This document shows, one piece after another, positions 10,696 through 45,722 of a DNA stretch of 64,000 nucleotides; the stretch's first letter is position 1; every line of letters begins with the position of its first letter. The notes below the pieces were generated by a model. It saw nothing but the letters and a program-made list of their open reading frames with translations, searched no databases and was not told the origin of the DNA. The stretch lies in the IMG/VR virus record IMGVR_UViG_3300042477_000769. One strand, written 5' to 3'. The position numbers were made by a program, and so were the translations under genes. This stretch comes from a virus (Duplodnaviria > Caudoviricetes).

Positions 10696-11409
10696 ATGAG
10701 AGTTGCTGAAATATTACAGGCGATGGCGGCTTGGTTAGAGAGCCCAGATAATGAGGCATTATTATTATCTGAATATCATGAAGATAGCATGAAAATTGTG
10801 GCAGAAAATTGCATTTTGGCGGCAGCTTTGCTGAAAAATGCGGCAGAACAAGTCAATGAAATTGAGCCTCCCGCAGAATCCAAGATTACTCCAGAAGCTA
10901 TTGAGCAAACGGCCGCGTTAGCTGCTATGTTTGATGCTTCGGGCGATCCAGAATTAAAAAAACAAGCTTCAGTTTTAGATGAGTTATTATTATCTATTGC
11001 GGCTCCACCTCATGCATATGCCGAGAGAAAAGATTTACAAGACCAACGGTTAGTAGAATTAAAGAAAAAATATGAGAATCCAACTCAAGAATTAAATGAA
11101 ACCAATAAAACGGCTGATGCTGAGAAAATAATTGATAAAAGCAATATGACCAAAACTTATAAAGTGTTGGAAGCTCCCTTAAGCACTCGTTATTGCCCAG
11201 ATCATCCAGGAGTGCAAATTGCCAGAGTGGGAGAGCATATGTGGCAATGTGAGCTAGATAAAAAATCTTATAATTTTGAGACTGGATTTGAATTAACTAA
11301 TGGTGCTCAAGTTCCAGGAGGCGATGTAGCTAATCAAACTCAAGTCTTAGAAATTCCGTATCATGCCATCTTCGATAGTCGCGAAGATCGACTTGGCTAT
11401 AATAAATAA
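10696..11409 (+). CDS. Hypothetical protein with shared helical motif and CxxH..C cluster
   Basis: SD GAGGAG at 10685-10690; LAAMFDASGDPELKKQASVLD; RYCPDHPG..WQC. Confidence 0.65.
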   Translation: MRVAEILQAMAAWLESPDNEALLLSEYHEDSMKIVAENCILAAALLKNAAEQVNEIEPPAESKITPEAIEQTAALAAMFDASGDPELKKQASVLDELLLSIAAPPHAYAERKDLQDQRLVELKKKYENPTQELNETNKTADAEKIIDKSNMTKTYKVLEAPLSTRYCPDHPGVQIARVGEHMWQCELDKKSYNFETGFELTNGAQVPGGDVANQTQVLEIPYHAIFDSREDRLGYNK

Positions 11410-11432
11410 TATAATTATCATTTAAGATATAG

Positions 11433-11463
11433 ATGGTCGTGAAAACTTCACGGCCATTTTTTT
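11433..11463 (+). terminator. Intrinsic terminator
   Basis: ATGGTCGTGA-AAAC-TTCACGGCCAT stem followed by T7. Confidence 0.8.
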
Positions 11464-11501
11464 ATGTGTATAAATTTGGCGATAAAATCATATTATTCTA
11501 G

Positions 11502-12260
11502 ATGAATAAGCCGGCTTATAAAAAAATATTAGAACATCCAGATAAGGATGAAATTATTTCGAAATTGGTCATTGGTATTTCTGCCAGTGATATTCATGAA
11601 TGGTTAAAAATTAAGTATAGTGCTGTGAGTGAAGCTAAATTAGTCTTATCAGAAAAACACATTAAATCTTTTAATGATAATTATTTAGATTTTTATAATG
11701 ATATGTTGCAAGACGTTGCGGCTACTAAAACTGGTATGACTAATAAACCAGAAGATGAATTAAAATTAGCGGTCAGAAATAATCCAACTTATAAAGACGC
11801 GTTACTAAAAGTAGCTAATAATGAGTTAGATATTGAACGAATTATGGCCACGATGGCGATTAATGTAGAAACTCGAATGGCTCAAGTATTTGATGAGATG
11901 ATGGAAGATCCTCGCAATATTAATACCAAAGTGGATCGATTATTTGCAGAATACGCTGATATTTTAGGTAATTTATTAGATAAATATCATAAATGGAAAG
12001 AAAAACCAGCAGCTGATCAAGTGATTCAGCATAATGTTACTTTACAGGTTGTAGATCAGCATATTTCAGTATTTCATGATGTAATTAAAGAGGTGTTGTC
12101 TCAAATGGATTTAGAGACCTCCATGTACTTTATGGAAGTGTTTGCAGAAAAAATGGCAAAATTAAAACAACCGACCCATGAAGCTGGACCCAGTCAAGAA
12201 ATGAAATTAGCTGAAGCAAAACTATTAAATGAAACTATTAACCAAAAAGTTAATCAATGA
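11502..12260 (+). CDS. Hypothetical helical protein, possibly small terminase
   Basis: N-terminal HTH-like segment and long helices; first gene after the terminator in the packaging region. Function is only a guess. Confidence 0.35.
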   Translation: MNKPAYKKILEHPDKDEIISKLVIGISASDIHEWLKIKYSAVSEAKLVLSEKHIKSFNDNYLDFYNDMLQDVAATKTGMTNKPEDELKLAVRNNPTYKDALLKVANNELDIERIMATMAINVETRMAQVFDEMMEDPRNINTKVDRLFAEYADILGNLLDKYHKWKEKPAADQVIQHNVTLQVVDQHISVFHDVIKEVLSQMDLETSMYFMEVFAEKMAKLKQPTHEAGPSQEMKLAEAKLLNETINQKVNQ

Positions 12261-14074
12261 AAACCCTGTTATCTACCTCAACATTAGATCTTCATCCTTA
12301 CCAAGATGAAGAATTAGAGCTTTCAGACGAAATGAAAGTAAAATTAGAAAAATTAATGGAATTTTTTGATGAGTATTCTATTGATTATGATAAATTCAAG
12401 TTAGATAATATTCCTACCTTAGATTTTGGTAAGAAGGATGCTTATCCTAATAATCGAGATTATTTTAATATTCCGGGTCAACATAATACTCAGAAGTGGC
12501 TAGAAACGGTAAAAAATATTTATCGAAGTGAACAACAAGGTGAAAATAGAGTGCAAGCTATTCGTCGGGCCACCAATGGTTGGCATATTATGGAAACCTT
12601 TGATTTTCTTAATTGGGTGAAGTTTTATGAGTCTGGAGATCATATGAAGTATAAATTTGCCAAATTGTGGTATGAAAATGATGATTTGGGTCCGGGTTAT
12701 TTCTTACAAATTAAACAAGATGAATCGGTTCCTGAAAAACACACCTCCGGTCAAGATATTGATTTTGCTCGAGAAACTGCCGTTTCAGATACTCAAAAAC
12801 GACAAACAATTGAAAAACAGCGTAATAAAATAATTGGTCGATTAGATTCTGCAGAAAAATTACTACGTTCTCCAGAAGGCAATATTTTCTCTGGCAAAGA
12901 ATTCCAATCTTTATTGGAAGCCATTTATGAATTAAAGAAAAAAATTCAAATGATTAATAAGGTTAGCACCTCTACTAAATTATATGAAGATATGATTATT
13001 AGAGAAGCTAATGTGTTAAATAAACGTGGATTTTATCAAGCTGCTAATTTATTAGCCTCTTATGCTCAAACTCCGGCCGCCTCGGGAGAATCGGCGACTG
13101 GTACACCCTCCGGAACAGAGGTAGTAGCTCCAGCTTCTGCAGGAGATCCTGCTGGAGCCGGTCATCCAGGAGCCCCAGGAGGATTACCTTCTACTGGACC
13201 CGGCATGGCTCCAGGAACCAGTGCGTCTGGGACAGTAAATACACCACCAGCTATTGAAGAATTTTTATCTGGTTTAAATAATGGGCAATACGCTCCTAAA
13301 GATAAGCAATTATCAGAAGACTCTTTAGAGGTAGAAGATAATTTAGAAGTTAATGAAGAAGAGTTATTAGTCACTGAAGCTCAACTTGCTACTCCTAAAT
13401 TAGAAGTGGATGAGCCAATTACTACTTCTCCAGCCCCGGCTCCTTTGGATCCTGCTCCAGTGGCCGCGCCTACCACTCCAGAGGCAGATCCAGATAAACC
13501 AGTCACTAAAGAAGAGTTAGAAATTTCAGAAGAGGATATTGAAAGAGCTAAACATAGAAAATTAACTCCTAATTTTGACACTAAAGTTAATGAAGTATTC
13601 TCTAATATTACTATTGCTGATGTAGTAGTTAAATTAGAAGATTTAGCTAAAATCTTCAAAATTAGAGAAGTGCCTCGTCAATTAGGCATTGTAGATATGA
13701 TGTTAGATAGTTTAGGATTAGCCTCTTTCTTCCCCTCCTTATCAGAAGCTACTAATAAAGCTTTAGAATCTAATAATTATATTTCTACTCGTTTAGAAGA
13801 TATTTTATCTAAATTACATGGAGCCATGGCTACCAAAGAAATTGATTTGACGGGAGAAGAACCCCCTTCCAATCCAGAAGTAGATAAAATTAAAGAAAAA
13901 TTAAAGCAAGATGAGAATAAAGATAAAGCCAGAAAACAAATGAGAAAACAACAGGAAATGTCGGAATTAGAAAATAAATCTAAAGAAACTCCTGAAATAG
14001 AAATCGAAGAAGATTTATCGGTCCCTCCTGCTCCAGTAGCACCCGTGACACCACCACCCGCCGTCAAACCATAA
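12257..14074 (+). CDS. Hypothetical protein with Pro/Ala/Gly-rich and acidic linkers
   Basis: 605-aa ORF; shared motif EANVLNKRGFYQAANLLASYAQ. Confidence 0.65.
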   Translation: MKTLLSTSTLDLHPYQDEELELSDEMKVKLEKLMEFFDEYSIDYDKFKLDNIPTLDFGKKDAYPNNRDYFNIPGQHNTQKWLETVKNIYRSEQQGENRVQAIRRATNGWHIMETFDFLNWVKFYESGDHMKYKFAKLWYENDDLGPGYFLQIKQDESVPEKHTSGQDIDFARETAVSDTQKRQTIEKQRNKIIGRLDSAEKLLRSPEGNIFSGKEFQSLLEAIYELKKKIQMINKVSTSTKLYEDMIIREANVLNKRGFYQAANLLASYAQTPAASGESATGTPSGTEVVAPASAGDPAGAGHPGAPGGLPSTGPGMAPGTSASGTVNTPPAIEEFLSGLNNGQYAPKDKQLSEDSLEVEDNLEVNEEELLVTEAQLATPKLEVDEPITTSPAPAPLDPAPVAAPTTPEADPDKPVTKEELEISEEDIERAKHRKLTPNFDTKVNEVFSNITIADVVVKLEDLAKIFKIREVPRQLGIVDMMLDSLGLASFFPSLSEATNKALESNNYISTRLEDILSKLHGAMATKEIDLTGEEPPSNPEVDKIKEKLKQDENKDKARKQMRKQQEMSELENKSKETPEIEIEEDLSVPPAPVAPVTPPPAVKP

Positions 14075-14075
14075 C

Positions 14076-16427
14076 ATGAAATTACGTAATTTATTAGATC
14101 AAATGCAATCTATATCTAATAAAATCGGCTCGTCTCAGCCGATGATCTGTGGAGGTACGCCTCGGGATCAGTATATGGAAAGATTAGATCATATTGCTGA
14201 TCTAGATATTACTACTGGAGATAAAAAAGTACAATTTTTAGCGCAAGAATTTGGTAATGCATTAGCTAAACAATATGATGTCACGACTAAAATTCATGAA
14301 GATGGTCACGGAACTATTTATTTAGGTGATTTTAAAATTGATTTTTCTTCCAATTTTAATATTCCTAATATTGATAATATTTTGATTAAACAAGGTATTA
14401 CTAAGCCAACTAGTATGCAAAAAGAAATGTTTAGTCGAGATTTTACTTGTAATTCATTATTATTATCCTTAGATCTAAAAAATGTCATCGATCCTACTTA
14501 TCACGGATTACAAGATATTGATCAGAAAATAATTAGAACTTGTTTATCTCCAGAAATTACTTTATTAACTAATAAAAATAGAGTGGTTCGTGCTATTTAT
14601 TTGGCCTCCAAATTAGATTTTAATATTGATCCCAATATTATCAGCTATGTGGCGGCACATCCAGAGTCAGTAAAAATCTCGACTCCTAAATCTTTAACAG
14701 AAAAACTAAATTCTGCTTTTGAATTTAATCCGGAACGTGCCGCTTTTTATCTGACTCAGATGAATTTGTGGAATTATGTTCCTATTACTCCTGTTATGAG
14801 ACCATTTTTTATGAAAAAAAATACCACCGTTTCTTATATTTTATCTAAATATGCTGCCATTTCATCCGTGTCAGAAGCCAAACAATTGTTTGGTTTATTG
14901 GAAAATTTTACAGAAGAAGATGTAAAAAAGAAATATAAAGAATTAGTGGTGAAAAATTATCCCGATGTTAATCCTGTTAATGGTCATGAGAAAATGTTAG
15001 ATATTACTCAAGCTAAAGAAATACTATTAAAAAGCCTGACTACTCCAGAGCCTGTATTATTAAAGGAAGAAGAACCATGGAGACATTCTTATCATACGCC
15101 TGTCTCTGAATATATGGATGATGAAAAATGGGAATATTATACCAATCCAGAAATATTTAAACAATATCAAAAAGATTTTGAAGCTGAGCAAAATTATCAT
15201 CAATATGATGAGGATAGTTCAAGATTAAGAGAACAAGCAGAAGAAGATAGAATTTATAATCTCAGAGATAATATCGTCTCTATTTTAGAAAAAGTTAACC
15301 CGAATAAATTAGTAGAAGATTTTGGAGTGGATCTCGATGCCACTTCAATAAAAGAACTAGGTTTAGGTAATTTAGCCTCAAATCAAGATGGAATAGAATT
15401 AAGTGATTTAATTTCAGCGGCTATTCTCGAGATCATCTATTATGACCATCCTAAATATTTACCTAAATTATTAGAATTAGATTATTTTAAAAATGCAGTT
15501 CGTTCAAATAATTATATGAACAAGAACATGTCAGACTTGCTAAACAAGATAGATAATGAAAATATTAATAAATTATTTTTGACCAGTAAACTTTCTCTTA
15601 AAGATTTATCTAATTATCGAGATGAGCAGGGTATTATTGATGTGTTATTAAATAATCAAAATAAAGTAGTTACTGATTTATTGCAAGCTAAAAATCCACT
15701 AGATATGGTAGTTTGGTTTAGCGCTCCAGTGTTAAAAAATGTTTCTTACATCTTGCTAGACCAAGAACAAACTAAGCCGATAGTAAAATTATTAGATTTG
15801 GTTAAGAGACAATTAAACCAAAAAATAAAAACAGCTTATTTTCAAGGTGGGGGAGGAGTCAACGAACCCACTCCGAAAAAACGAAAATATAAAATAGATC
15901 CGGCCGAAGTAGTCCAGCCGAGATTTGAAGAGCCGTTTTATCGTAATTATGATCTATATAATGTTCCTGGTAAATATGGTCCGGGCACTAGAAAAAATCC
16001 TAAAAACTTAAAAGGCAAATATAAAGCTAAAAAAACTGCTCGAACTAAAGTCTTATCTAATCTCTTAAAAGTAGCCATTGACTTTCCTTCTGATAACCAA
16101 GTTAATCCAGAATTAATTACTGGTCAGCAAAATAACTTAATGGAATATCTTAATCCGGCCGGAGGATATTTAGATAAATATCTTCCTGATAATGATTTGG
16201 AAGATAAAGACCCCACCAAATTAAACTTTGGTCGAGATTATGCCGATCAACCCACAGGGCCTAAAATCGATAATATTGAAAAATTATTAGAACAATATTT
16301 GCCGACTGATTTGTATGGATTACCAGATGGAGTCGATGTCACAGAAGAAGAATTAGACCAACCTAATGATATTAATCCATTTTATGGTACCTTAGGCCCT
16401 AATAGTTTGATTCATCAACGCTACTAA
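14076..16427 (+). CDS. Divergent CCA/poly(A)-polymerase-family nucleotidyltransferase fused to a J-domain-like segment and a long C-terminal extension
   Basis: Motif A GGTPRD..DLD; motif B EMFSRDFT; motif D region TNKNRVVRA; J-like EAKQLFGL..EDVKKKYKELVVKNYPD..EKMLDITQAKEIL. Confidence 0.75.
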   Translation: MKLRNLLDQMQSISNKIGSSQPMICGGTPRDQYMERLDHIADLDITTGDKKVQFLAQEFGNALAKQYDVTTKIHEDGHGTIYLGDFKIDFSSNFNIPNIDNILIKQGITKPTSMQKEMFSRDFTCNSLLLSLDLKNVIDPTYHGLQDIDQKIIRTCLSPEITLLTNKNRVVRAIYLASKLDFNIDPNIISYVAAHPESVKISTPKSLTEKLNSAFEFNPERAAFYLTQMNLWNYVPITPVMRPFFMKKNTTVSYILSKYAAISSVSEAKQLFGLLENFTEEDVKKKYKELVVKNYPDVNPVNGHEKMLDITQAKEILLKSLTTPEPVLLKEEEPWRHSYHTPVSEYMDDEKWEYYTNPEIFKQYQKDFEAEQNYHQYDEDSSRLREQAEEDRIYNLRDNIVSILEKVNPNKLVEDFGVDLDATSIKELGLGNLASNQDGIELSDLISAAILEIIYYDHPKYLPKLLELDYFKNAVRSNNYMNKNMSDLLNKIDNENINKLFLTSKLSLKDLSNYRDEQGIIDVLLNNQNKVVTDLLQAKNPLDMVVWFSAPVLKNVSYILLDQEQTKPIVKLLDLVKRQLNQKIKTAYFQGGGGVNEPTPKKRKYKIDPAEVVQPRFEEPFYRNYDLYNVPGKYGPGTRKNPKNLKGKYKAKKTARTKVLSNLLKVAIDFPSDNQVNPELITGQQNNLMEYLNPAGGYLDKYLPDNDLEDKDPTKLNFGRDYADQPTGPKIDNIEKLLEQYLPTDLYGLPDGVDVTEEELDQPNDINPFYGTLGPNSLIHQRY

Positions 16428-16442
16428 TGTTATAGATCCAGG

Positions 16443-17552: not shown

Positions 17553-17593
17553 ATAATTTAACATATTAAAAGATAATCAATTGAGGTACATAA

Positions 17594-18487: not shown

Positions 18488-18489
18488 TT

Positions 18490-19437: not shown

Positions 19438-19438
19438 C

Positions 19439-22472: not shown

Positions 22473-22527
22473 TTATTGCTAAGAATTGATATATATCATA
22501 TTGTTGCATAGTATAAAATGAGGATAC

Positions 22528-31519: not shown

Positions 31520-31666
31520 ATGGGTTTTATTAAACGTGGCGATGGCAAAATACTTTCTGTAGTAGAGCCAGAAGCTGTACCAGAAGAACAAAAAAAAGTG
31601 GCTCAAGATTTAGTTAAAAAAGAAAAAGAGACTAAAGAATCCACTACTAAAAAAATAGAACAGTGA
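31520..31666 (+). CDS. Small 48-aa protein not in the ORF track
   Basis: SD GGAG at 31511-31514; MGFIKRGDGKILSVVEPEAVPEEQKKVAQDLVKKEKETKESTTKKIEQ*. Confidence 0.6.
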   Translation: MGFIKRGDGKILSVVEPEAVPEEQKKVAQDLVKKEKETKESTTKKIEQ

Positions 31667-31669
31667 GAT

Positions 31670-32332: not shown

Positions 32333-32364
32333 AATCCTTAAATATCTAGACCAGGAGATTTTGA

Positions 32365-35300
32365 ATGTTTCTTAAAATAGGTGAAGCTATAGAAATTAAT
32401 GGAGTAGAGAGCACTGAGTCTTGTCTACCCGCTGTCAATCCCGAAATTTTAGAAAATTTCAAAAAAATCGCCTCTAATTTAAAAAAGATTGCCCCCAAGG
32501 CCGAGGACTTTCTCTACTTCTCTGCCGTAATGATGCATGCCGCAGAGGCAGCCGCTCTCAACGATGACGGCACCCGCAAACTCAATGCCAAAGGCCAACC
32601 AGTCGAAGTAGGTTGGGATAAACGAGGAAACACTTGGAGATGGACTTCTAATGACCCCAATGTGAGACCTTATAAAAATGCGAATGGCGATATTTTTCCA
32701 GAAGAAGAATTAGTTAAAGCCTATAAAAAATGGGTAGGAAAACCTCTGTGCATTGATCATAAATCCAGTTCCGTCGATCATGTCAGAGGTTTTATCGTTG
32801 ATACTTACTATGATCGTAATTTAAAACGAGTGATTGCTTTATGCGCTTTAGATAAGGCTGGTTACCCTCAATTAGCTAGACAAGTAGCTACTGGAGTTTC
32901 TAATTGTGTATCCATGGGTACGGCGGTAGGAAAAGCTATTTGTTCTGATTGTGCCACCGTAGCTAGAACAGAACATGATTTTTGTGATCATATGAGACGC
33001 AAATCATGTTATGGAGAAATTAATTTAGATTTAAATCCTATAGAATTATCGATAGTAGTAAATGGTGCAGATCCTAAAGCTAGCATTAAGCATATTATTG
33101 CGGCGGCTAACACTTTAAATTCTTATGTAGAAAGCAAACAACAAGAAATAAATAAGTTTGCGGATAATTTTAGCGCTCGTTTGAGTTTTAATGTTGGGGA
33201 TCAAAGAGATAATGCTTCGGTCACTGATATTGAAGTTAATTCTAGTGATTTAGAAAATTTCAAAAAAGATGTTGAAAAAGCTATTGCAGATTTCCAGGAA
33301 CTGCAATCTTCATTAAATGAAGAAGAAAAAATGCAAGAACATACTAATGAAACTGCATTTGATCAATTGCCAGAAGAGATTAACTCTTCGGCTGATTCTG
33401 GATTGGCTCCCCCACATGCAAGATTTGCATCCGCTAAAGTAGGGGTGGACCCTATTGCTGAGCTTCAAGAGGTCACTAAAGGTATTGAGGCCAAGTTAAG
33501 CCAAATGAAACACAGCTTAGATAAGTTAGTAAACACTTCTACACATACACAAGAGGAAACTATGTCAGGTACAAACAATATGAATAAGAAAGGTTATTAC
33601 CAAGGCGCTGGTGGAGTTAATGAACCTACTCCAGGACAAGCTAAATATCCTAAAGATCCGTTAAACGAGCAATTACGTGAACGGGAAGATAAACAAATGG
33701 TTGGTCAATCAGGATTCCCTGGTGTTGGACCCGTGGATGGAATGCATCCCAGCCCAGATTCGGCAGAACCTGCTAATGAATTAGAGCGCAAAAAAATGTT
33801 AGCTCGGGCAGAATCCGAAGAGCGCGCAGTTCGCCGACAAGCCATTATTAATTTAGCTAAATCAGCCTTAGAGAATAAGCAAGCTTATTTCCAAGGTGGT
33901 GGCGGCGTGAATGAGCCCACTCCTGGTAAAACCAAATATCCTGCTGACAAGTTAAATGAACAAGCTCGTGATAAAGAAGATAAGCAAATGGTTGGCCAAA
34001 AACCTTTCCCTGGTGTAGGCCCGGTCGATGGATTACACCCTAGTCCTAGTTCGGCTGATATGGCAGACGAATTAAAGCGTAAAGAAATGTTACGCCGAGC
34101 CTCTACCCTGAGTGCTAAATTTGCTTATGCTAGCAATAATGACGGTTCGATTAATAAAGGTGATTGTGCGTGGGAAGTTTATCGTGGCGACAAATTAATT
34201 TTGAGCGCTTCAGTTAATGAATTATCTGGTGGAAAACCAAATAAATTATATGCCAACATTGCTACCAAACCATTTGGAGCTAAACTATTAGAAAAAGTAA
34301 AAGCTCATGGAGTAGATAAAGTTCGTGCCTTAGTTAAAAGCGCTCAAGTTGCTCCTGAAATGACCCAAGAAATGGCGCCTCCTGCTGAAGCAGCTCCGGC
34401 TCCGGCTCCTGCTCCTGCTCCAGCTGGATTAGATCCAGTAGAAGACGCAGGTAAATCTGGCGATGTCAAAGAGTCTGCTTCTGAGTTAGCTGAAAAAGTT
34501 AGAGATTTAAGCTCTGATTTAGTAGAAACAGTTCGCGCGTTAGAAGGCGAAAAAGCTGAAATGGGCGAAGTAGATGGCGCCGGTGGCGAGATGGCCGCTG
34601 CAGCTTCCTTTAGTACCAAAACATTAAATTCTTTTAGAAAAGAATTAAATGGAATGTTAACAGAAGCGATGAAAGAAGCGGTAGCTAGTTTAGATGGTCA
34701 TGCGGAAGAATTAGATCTTATTAGTGGATTATATGATAAGGGAGTGGTATCCACAGCCAATCAAGAATTAGTAAATAACATTGCAGAAGATGCCTTAACA
34801 GAAGCTAAGACTGCAGTGGCTGATGGATTCAAATTAATGTCTGCTTTCGTGAAGTATGCTCGTGGCACTCAAGCTATTGTCAAACGTGCAGAAATTGAAG
34901 CTGAACTTGAAGCATTAGCTGAAGGAGAAAATATGGATGGCGTACATAGCAGTAACGATGGCGATGATGATTTAATGGCCATGATTTCTGACACTAATTC
35001 TGAATTAGAAGATGTCAAATCTTTAATGGAAGAAGATAAAGACATGGAAGATGAACATGAAAAATCATTATTTGAAACTGTCGTAGAAGAAGGCGAAGTG
35101 GAAGCTGACGCTTTAGCTGATGATCATAAAGATGATGACAATGATCTCAAGGCTGGAGATTTGAAGCCAGAAACTCAACTCAAGCCAGAAATGTTATCTC
35201 AAGCCTTTAATAGCAAAGCTGGTCGCGCTGCCTTAAGAGCCAAATTAGCTGCTGATGCCTTAGGTAAACAAGATGATGGTCAAGTTCAAGATATGTCGCG

Positions 35301-35964
35301 GGCTCATTTTAGCGATATGTTAGATGAGGCTAATGATTTAGCTGATGGTCAAACAGAATTAGATGTAAAGCCTTCTAATAACTTAGGTTATGTAGAAACC
35401 TTATCGGAAGTTAACAAATCCATGATGGATTTGGCTAAAGCTCCACCTAAGGTTCGTAAAGAGGCTGAAGCTATTCACAAATTAGTCTCGGAAGGCAAAT
35501 TAGATCCATCAGATTTAGATGAATTAGTCTCTGAAGGATTAGATAAAGATGCCGTAGCTTACTACCGCAAATACTGGGGTCAAGTAGATGGTGGCTCTGA
35601 ATTTGCTAATGAATTAGCTAAAGAGCATGTGAAAGCTAAGATGGAAGAAGAGCTAAATAACTATAAAGTTAAAATTGCTAGAGCTTATGAATTAGCTTAT
35701 GATATGGTGGAACGTGGTTTGTGCGCTTCCGATCGTATTCATGTGACAGCTCAAGTAGAAGAAATTATGAAGTTTAATGATGAGTCATTTGAATCTTTAA
35801 AGAGAGTCGTCGCTCAACATAACCCAATGTTACAAAAGTCTGCTCATCGTATGCCGCAAGTAGGGTTTATTGGTGCGGGCGAAACTCATAGTGCAACATC
35901 CGCAGATGATGATTGGTCTCAATTATCGGCAGCATTTGCTAAGACTAACAAAAGATTATTCTGA
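32365..35964 (+). CDS. Prohead (capsid maturation) protease fused to a long acidic scaffold region
   Basis: NGDIFPEEEL..GKPLCIDH..VRGFIVD..VSMGT..IELSIVVNGADPKA (assemblin-type His/Ser pattern), then an acidic coiled-coil region; lies between portal and MCP. Confidence 0.8.
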   Translation: MFLKIGEAIEINGVESTESCLPAVNPEILENFKKIASNLKKIAPKAEDFLYFSAVMMHAAEAAALNDDGTRKLNAKGQPVEVGWDKRGNTWRWTSNDPNVRPYKNANGDIFPEEELVKAYKKWVGKPLCIDHKSSSVDHVRGFIVDTYYDRNLKRVIALCALDKAGYPQLARQVATGVSNCVSMGTAVGKAICSDCATVARTEHDFCDHMRRKSCYGEINLDLNPIELSIVVNGADPKASIKHIIAAANTLNSYVESKQQEINKFADNFSARLSFNVGDQRDNASVTDIEVNSSDLENFKKDVEKAIADFQELQSSLNEEEKMQEHTNETAFDQLPEEINSSADSGLAPPHARFASAKVGVDPIAELQEVTKGIEAKLSQMKHSLDKLVNTSTHTQEETMSGTNNMNKKGYYQGAGGVNEPTPGQAKYPKDPLNEQLREREDKQMVGQSGFPGVGPVDGMHPSPDSAEPANELERKKMLARAESEERAVRRQAIINLAKSALENKQAYFQGGGGVNEPTPGKTKYPADKLNEQARDKEDKQMVGQKPFPGVGPVDGLHPSPSSADMADELKRKEMLRRASTLSAKFAYASNNDGSINKGDCAWEVYRGDKLILSASVNELSGGKPNKLYANIATKPFGAKLLEKVKAHGVDKVRALVKSAQVAPEMTQEMAPPAEAAPAPAPAPAPAGLDPVEDAGKSGDVKESASELAEKVRDLSSDLVETVRALEGEKAEMGEVDGAGGEMAAAASFSTKTLNSFRKELNGMLTEAMKEAVASLDGHAEELDLISGLYDKGVVSTANQELVNNIAEDALTEAKTAVADGFKLMSAFVKYARGTQAIVKRAEIEAELEALAEGENMDGVHSSNDGDDDLMAMISDTNSELEDVKSLMEEDKDMEDEHEKSLFETVVEEGEVEADALADDHKDDDNDLKAGDLKPETQLKPEMLSQAFNSKAGRAALRAKLAADALGKQDDGQVQDMSRAHFSDMLDEANDLADGQTELDVKPSNNLGYVETLSEVNKSMMDLAKAPPKVRKEAEAIHKLVSEGKLDPSDLDELVSEGLDKDAVAYYRKYWGQVDGGSEFANELAKEHVKAKMEEELNNYKVKIARAYELAYDMVERGLCASDRIHVTAQVEEIMKFNDESFESLKRVVAQHNPMLQKSAHRMPQVGFIGAGETHSATSADDDWSQLSAAFAKTNKRLF

Positions 35965-35994
35965 GCAAAATCAACAAACTGAATAGAGGATATT

Positions 35995-36606
35995 ATGTCT
36001 AAAAATAGTGTATCAGATTTTGTCGCTGCTAGTATGGATGCAGCCTTAAAAAGCCCCGAGTATAAAACTTTGTTCAATACTCAATATAAATATGCTGAAG
36101 AAAAAGAAAAAGATGATTGCGATACGGATGATTGCAATGATACTTCTCATGCTCATGATACCTCTGCCGCTGATGTCGGGGAAGCTTGGGATAAAGATGA
36201 GAAAGATGCCAAAGATGATGACATGAAAGCTGATGCTGCTTTTGATGTTGCGATCGATAGCTTACTCACTGCTTCGGCCGCTTTAGATGCAGTTGGTATG
36301 GAAAAAACTGCTACATTTAGCTTAAAATTAGCCTCCTTAGTAGTAGAGGCCAAAAAGAAAGAAAAAGATAAGGCTAAGGATAAAAAGAAAGAAAAAGCTG
36401 ATATGAATGACGCTAAAGCTAAAGCCAAAGCCAAAGAAAAAATGGCTAAAGAAAAAGCCAAAGAAAAAGAAAAGAAAGATATGCAGATGGCTAAAGATAA
36501 AGCTGCTAAAGAAAAAGAAAAATTAGCCAAAGAAAAAGCCGCTAAAGATAAGATGGCTAAAGAAAAGGCTGAGAAAGAAAAAGCCTCTCAAAAAAAAAGT
36601 AAGTAA
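35995..36606 (+). CDS. Hypothetical protein with Lys/Glu/Ala-rich C-terminal repeat tail
   Basis: SD GAGG upstream; tail AKEKAKEKEKK..AKEKAAKDK. Confidence 0.7.
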   Translation: MSKNSVSDFVAASMDAALKSPEYKTLFNTQYKYAEEKEKDDCDTDDCNDTSHAHDTSAADVGEAWDKDEKDAKDDDMKADAAFDVAIDSLLTASAALDAVGMEKTATFSLKLASLVVEAKKKEKDKAKDKKKEKADMNDAKAKAKAKEKMAKEKAKEKEKKDMQMAKDKAAKEKEKLAKEKAAKDKMAKEKAEKEKASQKKSK

Positions 36607-36851
36607 AGCGTCTTGGAACGATCAGGAATAATTTGTAGAAATTAAGGACAAAAATGATAATGTAGTAGCTCGTGTACATAAATCATTATCAAAAAATGTT
36701 TTAGATAGTTTACCTGCAGATTTAGGCGCTCATGTGCCAGGATTAGGAGAAGATGATTATCCTGGCTATGAACCTTTGTCTGCTGAAGTAAAATATTATG
36801 ATGGCTATGAAGATGAAGATTTAGACTACGAAGATTGGACTCAATAGTTAA

Positions 36852-37070
36852 ATGTTTAAAAATACTAATGTAACAGAAGAAATTTATCGTTCAATGGAAA
36901 AACAATTAGTTTCTCATCAAGTAGAAACTAGGTTTGGATTTAAACGATTAGCTCAAGCCGCTGATTATTTGCAAGCGGCGGCTGAGATCTTTGATCAAGC
37001 TGGAATGTTACAACAAGCTGACGAAATAACAGAAGTCTTGCAAGATTTAGCTCAAGAAATGGCTAAATAG
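36852..37070 (+). CDS. Small helical protein (paralog of the N-terminus of 37079..37603)
   Basis: RLAQAADYLQAAAEIFDQAGMLQQADEITEVL aligns with NLVKAAEYLNSAMEILEDAGLTAKADRVLRIL. Confidence 0.7.
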   Translation: MFKNTNVTEEIYRSMEKQLVSHQVETRFGFKRLAQAADYLQAAAEIFDQAGMLQQADEITEVLQDLAQEMAK

Positions 37071-37078
37071 GAGTAACG

Positions 37079-37603
37079 ATGGCAAAACCCAGCATAGAAC
37101 ACGAATTAGTCTTAGGAATGCAACAAGAATTGCAACCTTATGAAAAAAAGCAAGCAATGACCAATTTGGTCAAAGCGGCAGAATATCTTAATTCTGCTAT
37201 GGAAATATTGGAAGATGCTGGGTTAACCGCTAAAGCAGATCGAGTATTAAGAATCTTAGCTAAAATTGCTCAAGAACAAGATATTAATCAGGCTAAACTG
37301 TCTTCAGATGAAGAATTTTATCAAAAAATAATGAAGTGGTTAGATGATCCAAAAACTCCAGTAGACCCAGAACATCCACAACCCGGAGAAGAATTATCAT
37401 TTAACAGTCTATTAACCGAGCCAGCCAAAGATGAATTAACTTTTCAAAGTTTATTAACGCAAAAAAATGATCCTAAACCCTCCAATGATGACTTATTATT
37501 TAAAAGTATCGCCATGGAATTAGATGAAGATGATGAGTTAGTAAATTTACAAGATGAAGATCAAGAAAGCGATGAAGACGATTTATTTGAAGATGCAGAT
37601 TAA
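37079..37603 (+). CDS. Helical-motif protein with acidic tail
   Basis: SD GGAG upstream; shared motif followed by AKIA|Q and DINQA|K. Confidence 0.7.
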   Translation: MAKPSIEHELVLGMQQELQPYEKKQAMTNLVKAAEYLNSAMEILEDAGLTAKADRVLRILAKIAQEQDINQAKLSSDEEFYQKIMKWLDDPKTPVDPEHPQPGEELSFNSLLTEPAKDELTFQSLLTQKNDPKPSNDDLLFKSIAMELDEDDELVNLQDEDQESDEDDLFEDAD

Positions 37604-38460: not shown

Positions 38461-38496
38461 GCAATATTGTAAAGAGATTAAAGTCTGGAGGACACC

Positions 38497-39186: not shown

Positions 39187-39275
39187 TATTGTAGAGAGTA
39201 ACAAAAACTATCTTTTATGAGTGAAACTTTCTATATTGTGGCATTATATAGAATAAATAATTTTATTGAGGCCAT

Positions 39276-40550
39276 ATGACTTTTAAACACATTAAGTTTG
39301 AAGATTCTGCCATCATGCGTTCATTAGAGAAATTAGCGTTTGATAAGGGATTAGTAAAGCCAGAAACTTTAAACAAAACAGCATCAGTTAAAAGCCCGGA
39401 GCCCACTTCTGGTAGTTTGGTGGAGCAGGTTATTTACTTATGTGCGGAGATGAAGAAATCTGGCTTAGAAAAAGAGGCTCGAGATTTAGAGCATAAATTA
39501 CTTAATTATAAAAGAGCTAATACTTTGTATCAAACTTCTCAAGAAACGGGAGAAGATTTGGTTGATCAAGCTCATCCTAAGGGAAGTTATCACATGCCGG
39601 GATTAGGGGAGCTAGGGATCATTGAAACGGTTATTGATCAACAATTAAAAAGTTTAAAAATGGTGGAGAAGAAGCCAACGGGTAAATTAGCTAATAGAGA
39701 GATTATTGACGCAGTGAAAGTTATTTTAGCTGAAGAAAATAAAACATTAGAAGAAGTAAAAAAAGAATTAGGCTCTTTAGTAGCCTCTATTAAAGAGCGA
39801 ATAGAAAAAGTTGGTAACATAGCTTCACAATATACGACTGAACACCTATCTTCACAAATTGAGAAAGCGCCGCTGATGTTAGCTGGTCCCCTGGGACTAG
39901 GCGCGCTCTGGCTTGACGAACCAACAAAAAAAATTTCTAATTTTGTTTCTATTATTAGAAATAATTTAAGCGTATATAATGCTAATAATTTTAAAAAAGC
40001 TAAAAATGTTTATCATAATTTTTATGATTTCTTGAAGCCTGGGTTCCAGAAAGGAATTTCGGAAGATGGTTGGAGCATAGTAGAACCAATAATGAATCCA
40101 ATTGGCTCTGATTTAACTAAAGCGATAGAGTTAGTGAATAAAATAAATTTATTAGAATCAAAGGAGGCGCCAGAAGAAAAAAAACCAGAAAACGAAGAAA
40201 AAGTAAAAGTTTTTACAAACCAGCAAAAAAAGCACAATATCTGGATTGAATTTTTAGGCGAATACAGTAAAATGCTTAGTAAAATGGATAAGATCCATAA
40301 AGAATTAGGAGATACGCCCGAGGTGAAAAACACAAAACTTTGGATTAAACAAAAAATAGAAAAAATGCAGATGAAAGCTTCTGCTTGTTTGGAAAACATA
40401 AAGAACAATGAAATAACAGAAGATCAATTTCAAGATCAAATTCATGAATTTGAAAAGTTTTTAAATCATATTGACACTGAGCTTAAAAAACTACCTGTAT
40501 ACTCTAAGGTTAATTCTAACTTGCTACAACAAATAAAAAACTGGTTTTGA
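39276..40550 (+). CDS. Hypothetical protein (probable internal head protein)
   Basis: SD GAGG; NKTA|S and YKRA|N; N-terminus weakly similar to 44505..45722. Confidence 0.6.
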   Translation: MTFKHIKFEDSAIMRSLEKLAFDKGLVKPETLNKTASVKSPEPTSGSLVEQVIYLCAEMKKSGLEKEARDLEHKLLNYKRANTLYQTSQETGEDLVDQAHPKGSYHMPGLGELGIIETVIDQQLKSLKMVEKKPTGKLANREIIDAVKVILAEENKTLEEVKKELGSLVASIKERIEKVGNIASQYTTEHLSSQIEKAPLMLAGPLGLGALWLDEPTKKISNFVSIIRNNLSVYNANNFKKAKNVYHNFYDFLKPGFQKGISEDGWSIVEPIMNPIGSDLTKAIELVNKINLLESKEAPEEKKPENEEKVKVFTNQQKKHNIWIEFLGEYSKMLSKMDKIHKELGDTPEVKNTKLWIKQKIEKMQMKASACLENIKNNEITEDQFQDQIHEFEKFLNHIDTELKKLPVYSKVNSNLLQQIKNWF

Positions 40551-40554
40551 TAAT

Positions 40555-41685
40555 ATGTTGAAACGTAATATTATACAAGAAATAAACAAAATAGCCCAAG
40601 AATATGACTCGATTCCTCTTCCTTCTACTCAAAAGAGCAGTCCTAGCGTGTCATCTAAACCTACTGGCTATGTAGCTAATAATGATATTAGTCGCATGCA
40701 AAAAGCTATTCAAAATTTTGCAGCAGCAGCGGTTAAATATAAAACAGTACCTGTCAATAAAAACGGTAAACTAGTAAAAGAAGTTGATAAAAACGATACC
40801 AGAAGAGACTTTAATGATTTTTTGGTAGAACAATTTGCTAATAATGCTGAATTACGAGGCGATGAATACTCTCCAGATCCGGGAGATACGACCCTGTCAT
40901 CTAAACAACCTACAGATCTAATTCAATTAGATAATGTTATTGATCAATTACGTAGAACAGGATCTCAAATAAATGAAAAATTACCAGATGGTAGCTGGGA
41001 AACTCGCACTAATAATGCAGTTCGTAATGTGTATGCTTTAGCTGTAGCATTAGTAGAAGCTAATGAAGCATTGGGTGGAACTTCAATTAATGATCGCCGA
41101 GTATTTACCAGATCAGATTTAGCTGCATTTAAAGCAGCTATTCCTCCTTATAAAGATCCTGTAGCAGAAGGCGGTTTAACTAAAGAAAATCTCTCTCAAA
41201 GAGCAGTGACTATTACTAAATTAGTTAATAAACTAACTGAGTTTTATGATTTTTATTCTAAAACTATTTTAGATCATCCGGCCTATAAAAGCTATATAGA
41301 CCAGACAAAAGCTTTATTGACAGTAGAACCCGGCAAAGATCCGACTATGTTAAATGAAGCAGATCAAAAGCGTTTAGAACAATCAAAAGATATTCGTTTA
41401 CCATTTTTACGAGTCTTAGATAAAGATAATCGTCCCATTAATATTGATGGTAATGTAGCATTAGACTATTTACAAAGTAAACAAGGATTACAAAAATTAA
41501 TGGTAGATTTTTTAAAATATCAACCTAATGAAGTTAATAGCTTTCCTGCTATGAGAAAAACGGTTAATAATTTAATTGATCGTATTAATAAAATAATTGC
41601 TACTAATCGTCAATCATTAAATCCAATAATTGATAAAAATCAAATAAAAGAAATATCATTCGATCCAAACTCTAATATAGCCTAA
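40555..41685 (+). CDS. Hypothetical protein
   Basis: N-terminal INKIA|Q. Confidence 0.6.
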   Translation: MLKRNIIQEINKIAQEYDSIPLPSTQKSSPSVSSKPTGYVANNDISRMQKAIQNFAAAAVKYKTVPVNKNGKLVKEVDKNDTRRDFNDFLVEQFANNAELRGDEYSPDPGDTTLSSKQPTDLIQLDNVIDQLRRTGSQINEKLPDGSWETRTNNAVRNVYALAVALVEANEALGGTSINDRRVFTRSDLAAFKAAIPPYKDPVAEGGLTKENLSQRAVTITKLVNKLTEFYDFYSKTILDHPAYKSYIDQTKALLTVEPGKDPTMLNEADQKRLEQSKDIRLPFLRVLDKDNRPINIDGNVALDYLQSKQGLQKLMVDFLKYQPNEVNSFPAMRKTVNNLIDRINKIIATNRQSLNPIIDKNQIKEISFDPNSNIA

Positions 41686-41696
41686 AGGTAAACTCC

Positions 41697-43385
41697 ATGT
41701 CTTTTATTTATGAAAATAAACTGTTATTACAAGCTTTATTAGAGGCGGGCGGAGCTTTGGAAAAAAAAGCTCAAGATAATGAACAATCTAAACAAAATAT
41801 TTTAGAAAATTTTCGAGACTTTAATCAAAATCAAGAAATAGTAAAGGCTTTACCTGATTATGATTTGGCATTAAAATTATTGTATAATTTACAACGAGAA
41901 TTAAAAGATCCTAAAGCTCCCCCGGCAGGAATTCCAATTGGAACTCAAAGCGGTAGTACTCAAATAGAAGCTAATACCGCTAATTTTAGAACTTTAGGAG
42001 ATTTTTTAAACTGGGCGGCAGCTAACAAATTAACTTGGAAAAATCAAAGATTTGCTTGGACTAAAGAAGAAGCTGATAAAGATCGTTCGATTATTAATAA
42101 TAATTGGACTTTTACCTCTTTACCATTTGATAGAAATGATCGATCTTTAGATCGTCAACCAATAAGAACCATAGCTTATGCAAATAAAGATGCACTAATA
42201 GAATATTTAGCTGCTTTAAGAGATAGTCCAGAAACTCAAAAAAATAATGTATTAAAATTTATGTTAGCCAGTTTAATTGGAGAAGCAAACGGTTTTCTTA
42301 GAATACAAGGTGAGAAACCCATTGAAACAAAAACTAGTCCCAAACCGGCAGATAATTTAGATCCTAATTTAATTGTAGATATCTTACCCGCTATTTTAGG
42401 CAATGATACTATCAATGAGAATTTAAATAATGCACCGTTTAATTTATTCAAAGCCGACAATGTTAATGCTTTAACTGTTGAAGATTTAAAAAGTAAATCA
42501 AATTTTACTAATTGGCTGAGTAATCGACAAATAAAAGTCAACTTAGGAGGTAAAAATCCAACTACTAAAGTTGTCAAAGTATTTGACCCAGAATCTGGAG
42601 ATCCTTGTTTAGCTGTTCATATTTTATATAAACGTGCATTACATTTAAGAAATGCCGCTGAAGGACATGATCAATTTGTTACTAATTATAGTAAAGCTAT
42701 TAATTTATATATTAATGCTGTAACTGCTTTTGGTCGAGAATTTACAGATAAAAATGGTCATCCCTGCACCGTATTATCTCCTACTTCGGATACTAATGCC
42801 AGAGTTTATCCTGGTGGTAGTGGCTCTCCTGCTGGAGGAGCTGGACCTGCAACTACTACTGGACTCGTCCCTAGTAATCCTCAAGTCAAATCTCAAATGT
42901 TAAAAAATCTAGTGCAATATATGCCGCTTAATTTGCACACTATTAATTTAGATGACATACTATCATTTTTTAATGCTTATGTCAACTTTTTAGAAAAAAC
43001 TTCTGGAGCGGAAGAGGAATTTGTTAAAACAGCACAGGCCAGTGTAATCTCTATTATTCAAGAAATTAAAAAAGTAACAGTCTTGCCACAATTAGTATTC
43101 CCATTAAATGGTGGGTCTGAAACTGTAGTGAAGTGGATTAGAAATCCATTATTTAGTTACACGCCATTTATCCAAAACTTATCAGAAATATTAGTTACTA
43201 CTTTTAGTGTAATTCAAAAATTTTATGATACCTATGGTAGAGTTCGATCGTCAGAAGATAGAGCAGAGTTTAATTCTGAACAACAAAATATTGTTAAAGG
43301 TCAAACGCCTATCTATAACTCTAATATGCGAGTTATTAATCGTTGGCTCAATGAGGCGGGAAGAGTTCAAGGATTTAAAAAATGA
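41697..43385 (+). CDS. Hypothetical protein
   Basis: N-terminal LEKKA|Q. Confidence 0.6.
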   Translation: MSFIYENKLLLQALLEAGGALEKKAQDNEQSKQNILENFRDFNQNQEIVKALPDYDLALKLLYNLQRELKDPKAPPAGIPIGTQSGSTQIEANTANFRTLGDFLNWAAANKLTWKNQRFAWTKEEADKDRSIINNNWTFTSLPFDRNDRSLDRQPIRTIAYANKDALIEYLAALRDSPETQKNNVLKFMLASLIGEANGFLRIQGEKPIETKTSPKPADNLDPNLIVDILPAILGNDTINENLNNAPFNLFKADNVNALTVEDLKSKSNFTNWLSNRQIKVNLGGKNPTTKVVKVFDPESGDPCLAVHILYKRALHLRNAAEGHDQFVTNYSKAINLYINAVTAFGREFTDKNGHPCTVLSPTSDTNARVYPGGSGSPAGGAGPATTTGLVPSNPQVKSQMLKNLVQYMPLNLHTINLDDILSFFNAYVNFLEKTSGAEEEFVKTAQASVISIIQEIKKVTVLPQLVFPLNGGSETVVKWIRNPLFSYTPFIQNLSEILVTTFSVIQKFYDTYGRVRSSEDRAEFNSEQQNIVKGQTPIYNSNMRVINRWLNEAGRVQGFKK

Positions 43386-44446
43386 ATCAGCAAGAAATTA
43401 GCTTCTATACTGATTGCTTTATTGTAGAATCTTTGCTACAAAATCATTCTCTAATTAAAATAGCCCAAGAAGGCGGACCGTTAACAGAATTGATTAATAA
43501 AGTAAAAGATTATTTCGGTCAACATATTGATCCGAATGATCCTGTCAGCAGCTTATTAGGAATATTAACTCCAGGATTAATTTTTAGCTTTTTAGGTTAT
43601 GGCTGGTTAGGCGGATTAATTGGCTTAGCCATCAACGTATTTCATGTAGATGTCAAAGGTATTATTTCCTCTATTATTAATAAAATTAAAGGATTAATTA
43701 CTGGTAATAAACCAACTAATTCTGAAAAAGTTGATGAAATTGTGGCTAGCTCAGTTCAAGAATTTGATAAACCTATTAGTGAAACTAGTAATGATACGAG
43801 TGTCATGGAAGACACTTTAAATAAGTTATTAAAGTCTACTTCTACTGTTCAGTTATCTAAAGATATTAGATTAGTTAAATTAGCTATTGTACAACCTATT
43901 AAAACTGCTAAATGGGGCGGCGGATTAGCAGCTCGACAAAAAACCACCATGACTTTATTAGCAAAAGTATTAGGTTGGATTTTTAAAGTTATTTTAGCTT
44001 CGGCTGGCTTATTGGTAGCTGGAGATGTAGTGAATAAATTTGTCGGCCGCCCTAACGCTTTTGATGGCGGCTTAAAAGATGGCAAGCCAATTGCTGCCAC
44101 TCCAGTACCCTTAGTAACTTCCAAACAAACTAAATTTCCAAAGCAATCTAATTATATAGAAGAACAATTTAATTCCGGAGATACTAATTGGGTGGAAAGC
44201 GTCGCTAACAATGATCCTTCTATTACGGCGATGTTAATCCAATTTGCTAAAGACGTGTATAACGGATTAGAGGGTTACGAAAATATTATTCGCACTTCTC
44301 CTGCGTTTGAAATTATTAAAAATAGAATAATTACCTACAATAGAACCACTCCCGGACAAACGATGGTCTTTATTCCTAAATATTTTAAGTCTAAAAAGAA
44401 AATTGTAGATTTGTTTATTGATGATGTAGCAGAAAAAGCTACTTAA
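43382..44446 (+). CDS. Hypothetical protein with two hydrophobic segments (possible membrane-inserting ejection protein)
   Basis: IKIA|Q; LLGILTPGLIFSFLGYGWLGGLIGLAINVF and LLAKVLGWIFKVILASAGLLVAG. Confidence 0.55.
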   Translation: MNQQEISFYTDCFIVESLLQNHSLIKIAQEGGPLTELINKVKDYFGQHIDPNDPVSSLLGILTPGLIFSFLGYGWLGGLIGLAINVFHVDVKGIISSIINKIKGLITGNKPTNSEKVDEIVASSVQEFDKPISETSNDTSVMEDTLNKLLKSTSTVQLSKDIRLVKLAIVQPIKTAKWGGGLAARQKTTMTLLAKVLGWIFKVILASAGLLVAGDVVNKFVGRPNAFDGGLKDGKPIAATPVPLVTSKQTKFPKQSNYIEEQFNSGDTNWVESVANNDPSITAMLIQFAKDVYNGLEGYENIIRTSPAFEIIKNRIITYNRTTPGQTMVFIPKYFKSKKKIVDLFIDDVAEKAT

Positions 44447-44504
44447 TTAAGGCATAGCTCGACATATTATTGATTACATTGTGTAACTTTTAATTTCTAG
44501 ATGG

Positions 44505-45722
44505 ATGAGTATAACTATGACCAGAAGCCAAATTTTTGATAATTTTATAAAAATTTCACAAGAAAAAGGTCTAATTGCTAATGATTCTTCTGAGGCCAAA
44601 AAGAAATTAGAAGAAACTAAACGAGCCGATTCTTTAGATGCTAAAGCAATCAGTCAATTATATGGGGTAAAAAATCCCGCTCCTAAAGATATGGAGTATC
44701 AACAAAATATTATTGAAATTGCTCATAAAAAACCAGTTATTATTGGTCCCTCTTATGATAAATTAAATGCCTTAGTAGAAAATAATCAAGAGCGTCAAAA
44801 TATCTTATTGAGAATTGTTAACAAAACTCCGGATGGATTATCTACTCAACGTAAATATGCAGAGCAAGAATTAACTTTAACCTTAGTTCAATTAGCTAAT
44901 AATTTTGATAATACTGATCAAGATAAATTAAGAAAACTAGCCGATTCTTGTTTATTAAAATTATCGTCTCAACAAACGAAAAAGTCTTTGCAGAAAAAAG
45001 CTGCAATATTGATACCTATTGCTATTGCAGCTGCCACTATTGGTGCTATTTATGCTCATCAACATATTGCAGATGCAGATGAAGGATTAGAAGAAAATTA
45101 TAAAAATTTAGTCAAACAATTAGATGATTTCTTAGATGACAATAACTCTGGTTTAGGTATTACCGGTCATGAATATAGTCAAGAAATGTTATCAGATATT
45201 AGAGAATTTAAAGATAGACTAGCTGATTTTATGCAATTATACCGATCTTTAAATGAAGTTATTAGAGAATTAGAAAAGCCCAGAGACGCTAAAGAATTAA
45301 TGGAATTATCTAAACAACCAAAAACTCATACCGTAATCAATGCCGTTAAAAAATTAAGAGAATTAGCAACTAATATGAGTACCTTTATGGATACTATTTA
45401 TAAGAACTTTAGCTCCAGTATGTATAAAAATCGACATACTAAAAGTAAAGGTGTAGTCGATAAATTATTAGAAACTAGTATTTTAGGTGTGAGCTTAAAA
45501 GGCGGTCAGACCGGATTAATAGCTGATGATTTTCAAGATGTTATTAATGCGATGAATACTTTTAGAACTAGCATTGCTGAATTATTAAAAGTTATGGAGG
45601 CGGCAGGGTCTATTGAAGAAGACAGTTTAGATAAATTATCGGCATCTTTAGATAAAGCAAAAGAAGATTTTGGCTCTCCGTTAGATTTAAGTGGACCCCC
45701 TAAACTTTTGTCGACAGATTAA
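44505..45722 (+). CDS. Hypothetical protein with a hydrophobic segment after a KxA motif
   Basis: QKKA|AILIPIAIAAATIGAIYAH followed by coiled coil. Confidence 0.6.
   Translation: MSITMTRSQIFDNFIKISQEKGLIANDSSEAKKKLEETKRADSLDAKAISQLYGVKNPAPKDMEYQQNIIEIAHKKPVIIGPSYDKLNALVENNQERQNILLRIVNKTPDGLSTQRKYAEQELTLTLVQLANNFDNTDQDKLRKLADSCLLKLSSQQTKKSLQKKAAILIPIAIAAATIGAIYAHQHIADADEGLEENYKNLVKQLDDFLDDNNSGLGITGHEYSQEMLSDIREFKDRLADFMQLYRSLNEVIRELEKPRDAKELMELSKQPKTHTVINAVKKLRELATNMSTFMDTIYKNFSSSMYKNRHTKSKGVVDKLLETSILGVSLKGGQTGLIADDFQDVINAMNTFRTSIAELLKVMEAAGSIEEDSLDKLSASLDKAKEDFGSPLDLSGPPKLLSTD

Follow-up and report, generated by a model that had tools for sequence, protein, structure and literature searches.

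In bacteriophage T4, the internal proteins IPI–III and Alt carry a capsid targeting sequence (CTS), which is removed by the prohead protease gp21. The T4 genes for the protease (gp21) and the scaffold (gp22) lie next to those for gp67 and gp68, which are small prohead core proteins; gp67 is processed to internal peptides. The scaffolding protein of phage P22 has a C-terminal helix-loop-helix domain that is basic and binds the N-arm of the coat protein. Here we analysed a 64,000 nucleotide (nt) stretch of DNA (the window; IMG/VR virus record IMGVR_UViG_3300042477_000769; Duplodnaviria, Caudoviricetes), which encodes a head-assembly region of a giant lake phage, an uncultured megaphage that is kin to Bacillus phage G. 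A preliminary description had picked out seven helical segments in otherwise unrelated proteins of this window, each preceding a K-x-A site, as candidate copies of one portable tag. We find that the seven segments are very probably not one module. Three of them lie in the adjacent open reading frames (ORFs, named here by their first nucleotide) 35995, 36852 and 37079, whose products have an N-terminal domain in common. Our overall reading, which we favour with some reserve, is that there is no single module and that this trio encodes small prohead-core or scaffold-accessory proteins.

The three genes are as follows:

35995–36606, + strand: paralog 1, 203 residues (hhalign against the domain profile A1)
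36852–37070, + strand: paralog 2, 72 residues, the three-helix domain alone (AlphaFold2 model and A1 alignment)
37079–37603, + strand: paralog 3, 174 residues (blastp, and hhalign against 36852)

As judged by blastp and profile comparison, ORFs 35995, 36852 and 37079 encode three tandem paralogs with a common N-terminal three-helix domain of ~65 residues. Homologs of every window protein were collected from 130 loci (L001–L130; 210 loci were eventually fetched) and aligned per family, and A1 is the domain profile and alignment, with 58 sequences. When the window proteins were compared all against all with blastp, 36852/37079 was the only significant pair of the 21 possible. The match (E 4e-7) extended beyond the motif across 65 residues, which is the whole of the small protein, and hhalign gave a probability of 99%. 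The A1 profile reached 99.9% against 36852 and 99.7% against 37079. For 35995 the hhalign probability was 56% with 36852, over 30 columns that correspond exactly to the hairpin, and 5.7% with 37079. Against A1 it was 52% for the untrimmed protein, with the first helix producing a second, separate and collinear match, and 96% (E 2.8e-9, 63 columns) after an acidic insert was removed. As the helix-1 and hairpin matches are collinear, and the probability is 96% without the insert, we take 35995 to be the third paralog.

In 35995, helix 1 occupies residues 1–24, the acidic insert residues 25–80 (net charge −13) and the hairpin residues 81–116, where the cited segment 36271–36324 is found; the tail has a net charge of +17, is 43% lysine and ends K-K-S-K. 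The AlphaFold2 model of 36852 has helices at residues 4–28, 30–49 and 53–71, with a mean predicted local distance difference test score (pLDDT) of 86 and values above 90 over the hairpin. Segment 36978–37028 of this protein is the end of helix 2, an A-G-M turn and the start of helix 3, and the cited motif is the turn, with its flanks, of the hairpin formed by helices 2 and 3 of the domain. ORF 36852 has 52 distinct homologs among the related loci. In 37079, where the segment is 37196–37273, the domain spans residues 1–66 and ends with K62-I-A64, and the tail that follows is acidic (net charge −25).

The 3′ end of 35995 has a run of nine adenines and then G-TAA, and the whole 35995 family ends K-K-(S/K)-K. 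On the 3′ side of this gene, at 36632–36847, there is a 72-codon open frame with an acidic end, whose 5′ end lacks ATG, GTG and TTG alike, with only an internal GTG. No similarity to this frame was seen in any fetched locus, and the 245-nt gap is absent from the relatives. We also considered an extension of 36852 by frameshift into 37079. This was dropped, as a stop codon and 8 nt lie between the genes, and 37079 comes with an AGGAG site and a domain copy of its own.

The trio lies directly 3′ of the following gene:

32365–35964, + strand: protease-scaffold polyprotein, 1199 residues (phrog_18299 head maturation protease, E 1e-14)

The head-maturation protease is the N-terminal ~260 residues of this product, which is 33% identical to the phage G gp19 region. 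Beyond the protease, the product is conserved, helical, acidic and scaffold-like, with many conserved h-x-K-x-A sites (h, hydrophobic residue). The series protease-scaffold gene, 35995-like gene and two domain-bearing genes was found in 59 of 73 related loci, and at least part of this cassette in 71 of the 73. In the relatives, the 35995-like gene begins 14–46 nt past the protease-scaffold gene. The scaffold is without the domain, the probability of A1 against the protease-scaffold family being 0.7%. Co-folding of the 36852 domain with scaffold residues 690–1199 gave no answer (score 0.00, with the fold of the partner uncertain) and so has no bearing on whether the two bind.

The domain defines a genuine and widespread family that has no name, although its kind, paralogous small head-assembly proteins, is already familiar. 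A search of 1.84 billion representative proteins with the A1 profile gave 861 clusters at E ≤ 1e-3. In the best 150 of these 861 clusters, the domain occupies residues 1–70 of proteins of 65–382 residues, the exceptions being a few short N-terminal extensions and two repeat proteins. The tail behind the domain is variable and charged, up to 300 residues long, or missing altogether. Of the domain-bearing ORFs from related loci with tails of at least 30 residues (n = 89), 95% have acidic tails; the 35995 family has a lysine-rich, basic tail throughout. About one-fifth of the members in related loci, including 36852, fall in a class of 50–74 residues and are essentially tail-less. Neither Pfam nor PHROGs has a name for the trio domain: searches with the seven proteins gave nothing above threshold, and Pfam searches with all 58 A1 members gave no consistent family. 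A fold search of BFVD with the 36852 model returned two homologs, both uncharacterised and both from uncultured phages.

At the end of the domain, L-x-K-x-A is conserved across the trio family. For K62-I-A64 of 37079, the conservation of the lysine and the alanine is 0.92 and 0.77, respectively; in 36852 the corresponding site is D-L-A and not K-x-A. A second conserved K/R-x-A is found inside the domain, at residues 32–34.

As would be expected of prohead-accessory proteins, the trio products are small, helical and charged, and are encoded with the protease, scaffold and capsid genes, as judged from synteny, the helical model and the tail charges. We propose that they may be small prohead-core or scaffold-accessory proteins. 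The common N-terminal domain would be the assembly part, acting in docking or oligomerisation and placing tails of opposite charge next to the scaffold inside the procapsid. The tails would be the part that differs, one lineage having basic and the other lineages acidic ones, and the terminal L-x-K-x-A could be a site for the maturation protease. Given how many members lack a tail, we think it likelier that the domain works as part of the core than that it is a label to be discarded. For this function of the trio we would allow a chance approaching, but short of, even.

Two more specific proposals can be made for the trio. In the first, the N-terminal domain would be a previously undescribed capsid-interior docking domain of G-like megaphages, loading both a polylysine, DNA-neutralising tail (masked by the acidic insert) and polyacidic tails into the procapsid, and the domain would then be released by an assemblin-like cut after the alanine of L-x-K-x-A. 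We regard this as unlikely. In the second, which we consider rather improbable, the ~65-residue domain would be a capsid-targeting propeptide that the prohead protease removes by a cut at the terminal L-x-K-x-A, with a polycationic DNA-binding tail and polyanionic tails as payload. Such a propeptide would suit a domain that is N-terminal in nearly all members and is followed by tails of 0–300 residues, and the motif conserved at its end recurs at the domain borders of the protease-scaffold polyprotein. The acidic insert of 35995 (−13) could also mask the +17 tail until cleavage. However, the tail-less fifth of the members in related loci indicates that the domain is kept for its own sake, the site in 36852 is D-L-A, and the conserved K/R-x-A at residues 32–34 would cut the tag itself. 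We prefer the prohead-core or scaffold-accessory role for the trio.

The remaining four segments lie in the following genes:

10696–11409, + strand: 237-residue protein, highly conserved (62–84% identity in 44 loci)
12257–14074, + strand: 605-residue protein
39276–40550, + strand: 424-residue head-module protein (hhalign to 44505)
44505–45722, + strand: 405-residue protein (hhalign to 39276)

All seven helical segments of the preliminary description are present, within 1–5 nt of where they had been placed: 10918–10980, 13004–13069, 36271–36324, 36978–37028, 37196–37273, 39438–39488 and 44892–44954. Each is conserved inside its own family across related IMG/VR contigs, so that none is a random stretch. 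The pattern said to unite them, (L/A)Axx(L/F)DxxGxxxxAxx(V/L/I), matches only ORF 36852 as written. The 10696 and 44505 segments need a loop that is longer by three residues to fit it, and the 44505 segment has aspartate in place of the glycine. Nor do the segments occupy a fixed terminus, their positions ranging from residue 40 to residue 250. They are N-terminal in the trio and not in 10696 (residue 75), 44505 (residue 130) or 12257 (residue 250).

The hairpins of 10696 and 12257 are unrelated and lie within helical regions of their own. The 10696 segment belongs to the last hairpin (helices 66–81 and 85–102; nt ~10891–11001) of a helical N-terminal region of ~100 residues, whose blocks have pLDDT values of 75–90 in the AlphaFold2 model, the remainder being of low confidence. 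A feature search of the ESM Atlas with 10696 gave only low-score clusters of hypothetical viral proteins, and a fold search with its model (VIA wide) only generic helical hairpins or bundles. In 12257 the segment (residues 250–271) closes the N-terminal part of the protein, ahead of a long low-complexity linker rich in Pro, Ala, Gly and Ser.

ORFs 39276 and 44505 encode, by profile comparison (hhalign 93.8%, E 1.7e-7, 200 columns), distant paralogs of each other, and the cited segments are not at homologous positions. The hairpin of 39276 (residues 49–83, nt 39420–39524) lies in a part of the protein to which nothing in 44505 corresponds, and the 44505 segment (residues 130–150) aligns to residues ~143–165 of 39276, a helix pair other than the one that was cited. 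The proteins had been called otherwise unrelated. This does not apply to 35995, 36852 and 37079, nor to 39276 and 44505.

In ORF 44505 there is also a hydrophobic, membrane-like stretch (44995–45050, residues ~165–185) directly after K164-K-A166, and ORF 43382 has another at residues ~55–90. Both stretches are compatible with ejection or membrane-active proteins.

Kinship among the seven segments was examined further at the level of profiles. Comparison of 32 family alignments with hhalign (496 pairs) gave 4.3% for 10696/36852 and only noise for the remaining motif pairs. When A1 was run against the 32 window families, the probabilities were 1.2% for 10696, 0.6% for 12257, 1.7% for 39276 and 0.4% for 44505, the last two at another site, and these values were interleaved with those of unrelated, uncited proteins. 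Iterative hidden Markov model (HMM) searches of the related loci (L001–L130; 7,938 ORFs), seeded with the 36852/37079 hairpin and with five other families, recruited only the family of each seed; the exception was the 35995 seed, which gave borderline matches to 36852 and 37079 only. In leave-one-family-out HMMs, 57 proteins were ranked with 50 shuffles per protein. Here 10696 (7.4 bits) and 35995 (3.8 bits) were each the top non-training protein. ORFs 12257, 39276, 44505 and 37079 ranked 14–24 of 57, with 5–14 of the 50 shuffles equal to them; 12257 scored −4.0, at rank 24. A profile HMM scan had been put forward as the check on the tag, and segments that fail to align significantly as grounds for rejecting it; the domain profile does not recruit 10696, 12257, 39276 or 44505.

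The K-x-A sites that were said to follow the segments are conserved in three proteins, 37079 (K62-I-A), 39276 (K79-R-A81) and 44505 (K164-K-A166); they are loosely present in 12257, 35995 and 36852, and absent from 10696. Across the head-region proteins, h-x-K-x-A occurs 52 times against 32 expected (z 3.2), and the reversed motif is depleted. Conserved K/R-x-A/S is also found close to the N-termini of head-module proteins without a preceding hairpin (26663, 40555, 43382, 44505, 39276 and 8306), and conserved K-x-A sites mark conserved domain borders of the protease-scaffold protein. Because K-x-A occurs near N-termini without a hairpin, inside the trio domain and at the scaffold borders, the motif is not specifically coupled to the helical motif. 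It is plausibly a processing signal; the phage G literature within reach gives no cleavage sites.

Many head-module proteins have a site of the type h-x-K-(I/L)-A/S-Q within the first 5–35 residues, after a short amphipathic stretch, with conservation of 0.83–1.0:

26663–26680, 40555–40600, 43382–43470, 44505–44565, 39276–39340 and 8306–8415: N-terminal h-x-K-(I/L)-A/S-Q sites

A short N-terminal leader with a putative cut site looks to be better matched by these N-terminal sites than by the hairpin.

A peptide of ~25 residues, Y-F/Y-Q-G-G/A-G-G-V-N-E-P-T-P followed by K-Y, is common to the PolyA_pol/DnaJ-like ORF 14076 and the protease-scaffold ORF 32365 (blastp E 1.5e-7):

15810–15900: shared ~25-residue peptide, ORF 14076, residues ~578–608
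33580–33660 and 33870–33950: shared ~25-residue peptide, ORF 32365, residues ~405–432 and ~502–528

The two copies in ORF 32365 are in repeats of ~97 residues, with K-x-A or K-x-G directly ahead of every copy. The peptide is kept in 75 scaffold and 23 nucleotidyltransferase-family matches from related loci, and is a better candidate than the helical motif for a peptide shared by unrelated proteins.

It now appears very improbable that, as originally put forward, seven unrelated proteins all carry the same portable helical tag, which would bind the scaffold or core and be clipped off at K-x-A like the T4 CTS. This model would account for the conservation of all seven segments in their families, for a K-x-A that is conserved after three segments and enriched in the head module, for the weak leave-one-out signal of 10696 and for the apparent insertion of the 39276 hairpin. 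However, none of the tests showed significant similarity between four of the seven segments and the rest, and the three that align are tandem paralogs rather than unrelated cargo. The tag would also have no fixed terminus, no K-x-A follows the 10696 segment, which is itself the last hairpin of a larger helical region, and the pattern as given fits one protein. An arrangement of tag, putative cut site and cargo would fit the trio family only, with its N-terminal domain, terminal L-x-K-x-A and variable tail, and does not extend to the other four.

The likeness of the segments can be described at the level of single residues. Their shared core is a hydrophobic residue, an acidic or polar residue, two variable residues, glycine, a hydrophobic residue and then alanines at helical spacing. 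Such a core is the classical glycine C-cap (Schellman motif) that links two alanine-packed antiparallel helices. We infer that the resemblance reflects general rules for an alanine-packed antiparallel hairpin with a glycine C-cap, as in repeats of the tetratricopeptide repeat (TPR) type. Structure searches with the 36852 model against the PDB, BFVD and the Atlas gave single-hairpin matches to TPR, SNAP, UVR and HisKA-type proteins, with a root-mean-square deviation of 0.4–1.1 Å over ~30 residues and Foldseek E > 1. The hairpin superposes on PcrH, IpgC, OGT, Cdc27 and a SNAP/TPR cluster (TM 0.4–0.6, Foldseek E > 1). A genuine TPR_12 repeat protein is among the matches of the A1 profile. None of the 58 A1 members reached the Pfam gathering threshold of any TPR model (at E ≤ 1 only ComR_TPR and SNAP appeared, with two members each), and Pfam gave no TPR match for the window proteins. 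A relaxed form of the pattern was also found inside the protease fold and the capsid-protein fold.

It is highly unlikely that the seven segments are non-homologous hairpins that converged on a similar acidic, alanine-rich surface for one procapsid partner: although all seven are in head-region genes, where the glycine-capped pattern is commoner than in shuffles or phage G proteins, and in five of them the residue three positions ahead of the turn is acidic or polar, the pattern is post hoc and occurs inside the protease and capsid-protein folds too, 44505 lacks the glycine, and there is no candidate partner, covariation or structural support.

Several observations weigh against our own reading, that there is no single module and that the trio encodes prohead-core or scaffold-accessory proteins. 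The 7.4 bits that made 10696 the top non-training protein were reached by none of its 50 shuffles, and 10696 and 12257, though at noise level, align best to the domain profile over the cited segments. The hairpin of 39276 lies in a stretch that is absent from 44505, as an inserted module would. In three of the proteins (37079, 39276 and 44505) the hairpin does have a conserved K-x-A behind it, and the head module is enriched in h-x-K-x-A. The relaxed pattern occurs 8 times, against 0.8 expected, in the proteins of the 8–47 kb region and once, against 0.65 expected, in 14 kb-worth of phage G proteins, a pattern that was defined after the data had been seen and half of whose matches are the cited segments themselves. 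Finally, the docking role of the trio domain is drawn from gene position, architecture and charge only.

A portable address tag would offer a handle on head loading in giant phages and a means of packaging foreign proteins. None is supplied by this window. Glycine-capped, alanine-rich hairpins look alike by eye, and tests at the profile level are needed ahead of any label as a tag. What the window does supply is a clear delimitation of a head-module domain family that is widespread and unnamed, with 861 clusters, a conserved four-gene cassette that includes the protease-scaffold gene, and tails of opposite charge. The family is a sensible first target in the study of head assembly or DNA charge neutralisation in phages of 350–450 kb.

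Nearly all of the genes in the window are on the + strand, and the G+C content is about 35%. Other head genes are as follows:

20142: terminase, intein-bearing
22528: portal
45830: decoration-like gene
46654–47715, + strand: major capsid protein, HK97-type (53% identity to phage G gp27)

The capsid gene at 46654 anchors the region as a head module. Its probable start is the ATG at 46702, and from this start the protein is 90–96% identical in 80 IMG/VR contigs. The five large genes just 5′ of it (39276–45722) are only 21–67% identical in the clade, a steep contrast in constraint within one module.

Three enzymes are encoded among the head genes, none of which has the cited helical motif: a glucosaminidase-type muramidase (PF01832), a tyrosine/dual-specificity phosphatase and a nucleotidyltransferase with a PolyA_pol head fused to a DnaJ-like segment. 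All three may be packaged.

27904–28899: muramidase
30040–30795: phosphatase
14076–16427: nucleotidyltransferase/DnaJ-like protein

On the 5′ side of the head region, at 686–4798, all-against-all blastp revealed an array of at least eight tandem paralogs of 82–202 residues that are 45–67% identical.

A search for near-identical DNA in a phage collection gave no match for the window; relatives are numerous in IMG/VR, where their contigs reach ~450 kb. The first 50 kb of phage G, which contain its head module, have no homolog of any of the seven families, and we found no cultured relative with genes of these families. As this part of phage G lacks all seven, its published proteomics cannot be transferred to the window proteins.

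None of the described systems is a sequence relative of the trio domain: this holds for the T4 CTS, for gp67 and gp68, and for the P22 hairpin. With TPR-type repeats (TPR_12 and relatives) the domain shares small residues at the helix-packing positions and glycine in the turn, but it is a single hairpin with a leading helix and not a repeat array. The P22 hairpin is likewise a short antiparallel helical hairpin, which serves as a docking element in head assembly; that of the trio differs in its acidic to neutral character, its N-terminal position and its place in a three-helix unit. Like the T4 CTS, the trio has an N-terminal element with a short motif at its end (here a putative protease site) and then a variable part, and its genes adjoin the protease and scaffold genes. 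However, the CTS is ~10 residues long and is found on unrelated bodies, whereas the trio element is a folded domain of 65 residues on three paralogs, many members of the family carry no payload, and the putative cut would follow alanine (K-x-A) rather than the glutamate after which the CTS is cut. No sequence similarity to gp67 or gp68 was found, and these two are not known to be paralogs with one domain as the trio proteins are. In other respects the trio resembles gp67 and gp68, being small, helical and highly charged, with genes that adjoin those of the protease and scaffold and are conserved along with them, and its products are plausibly minor components of the scaffolding core.

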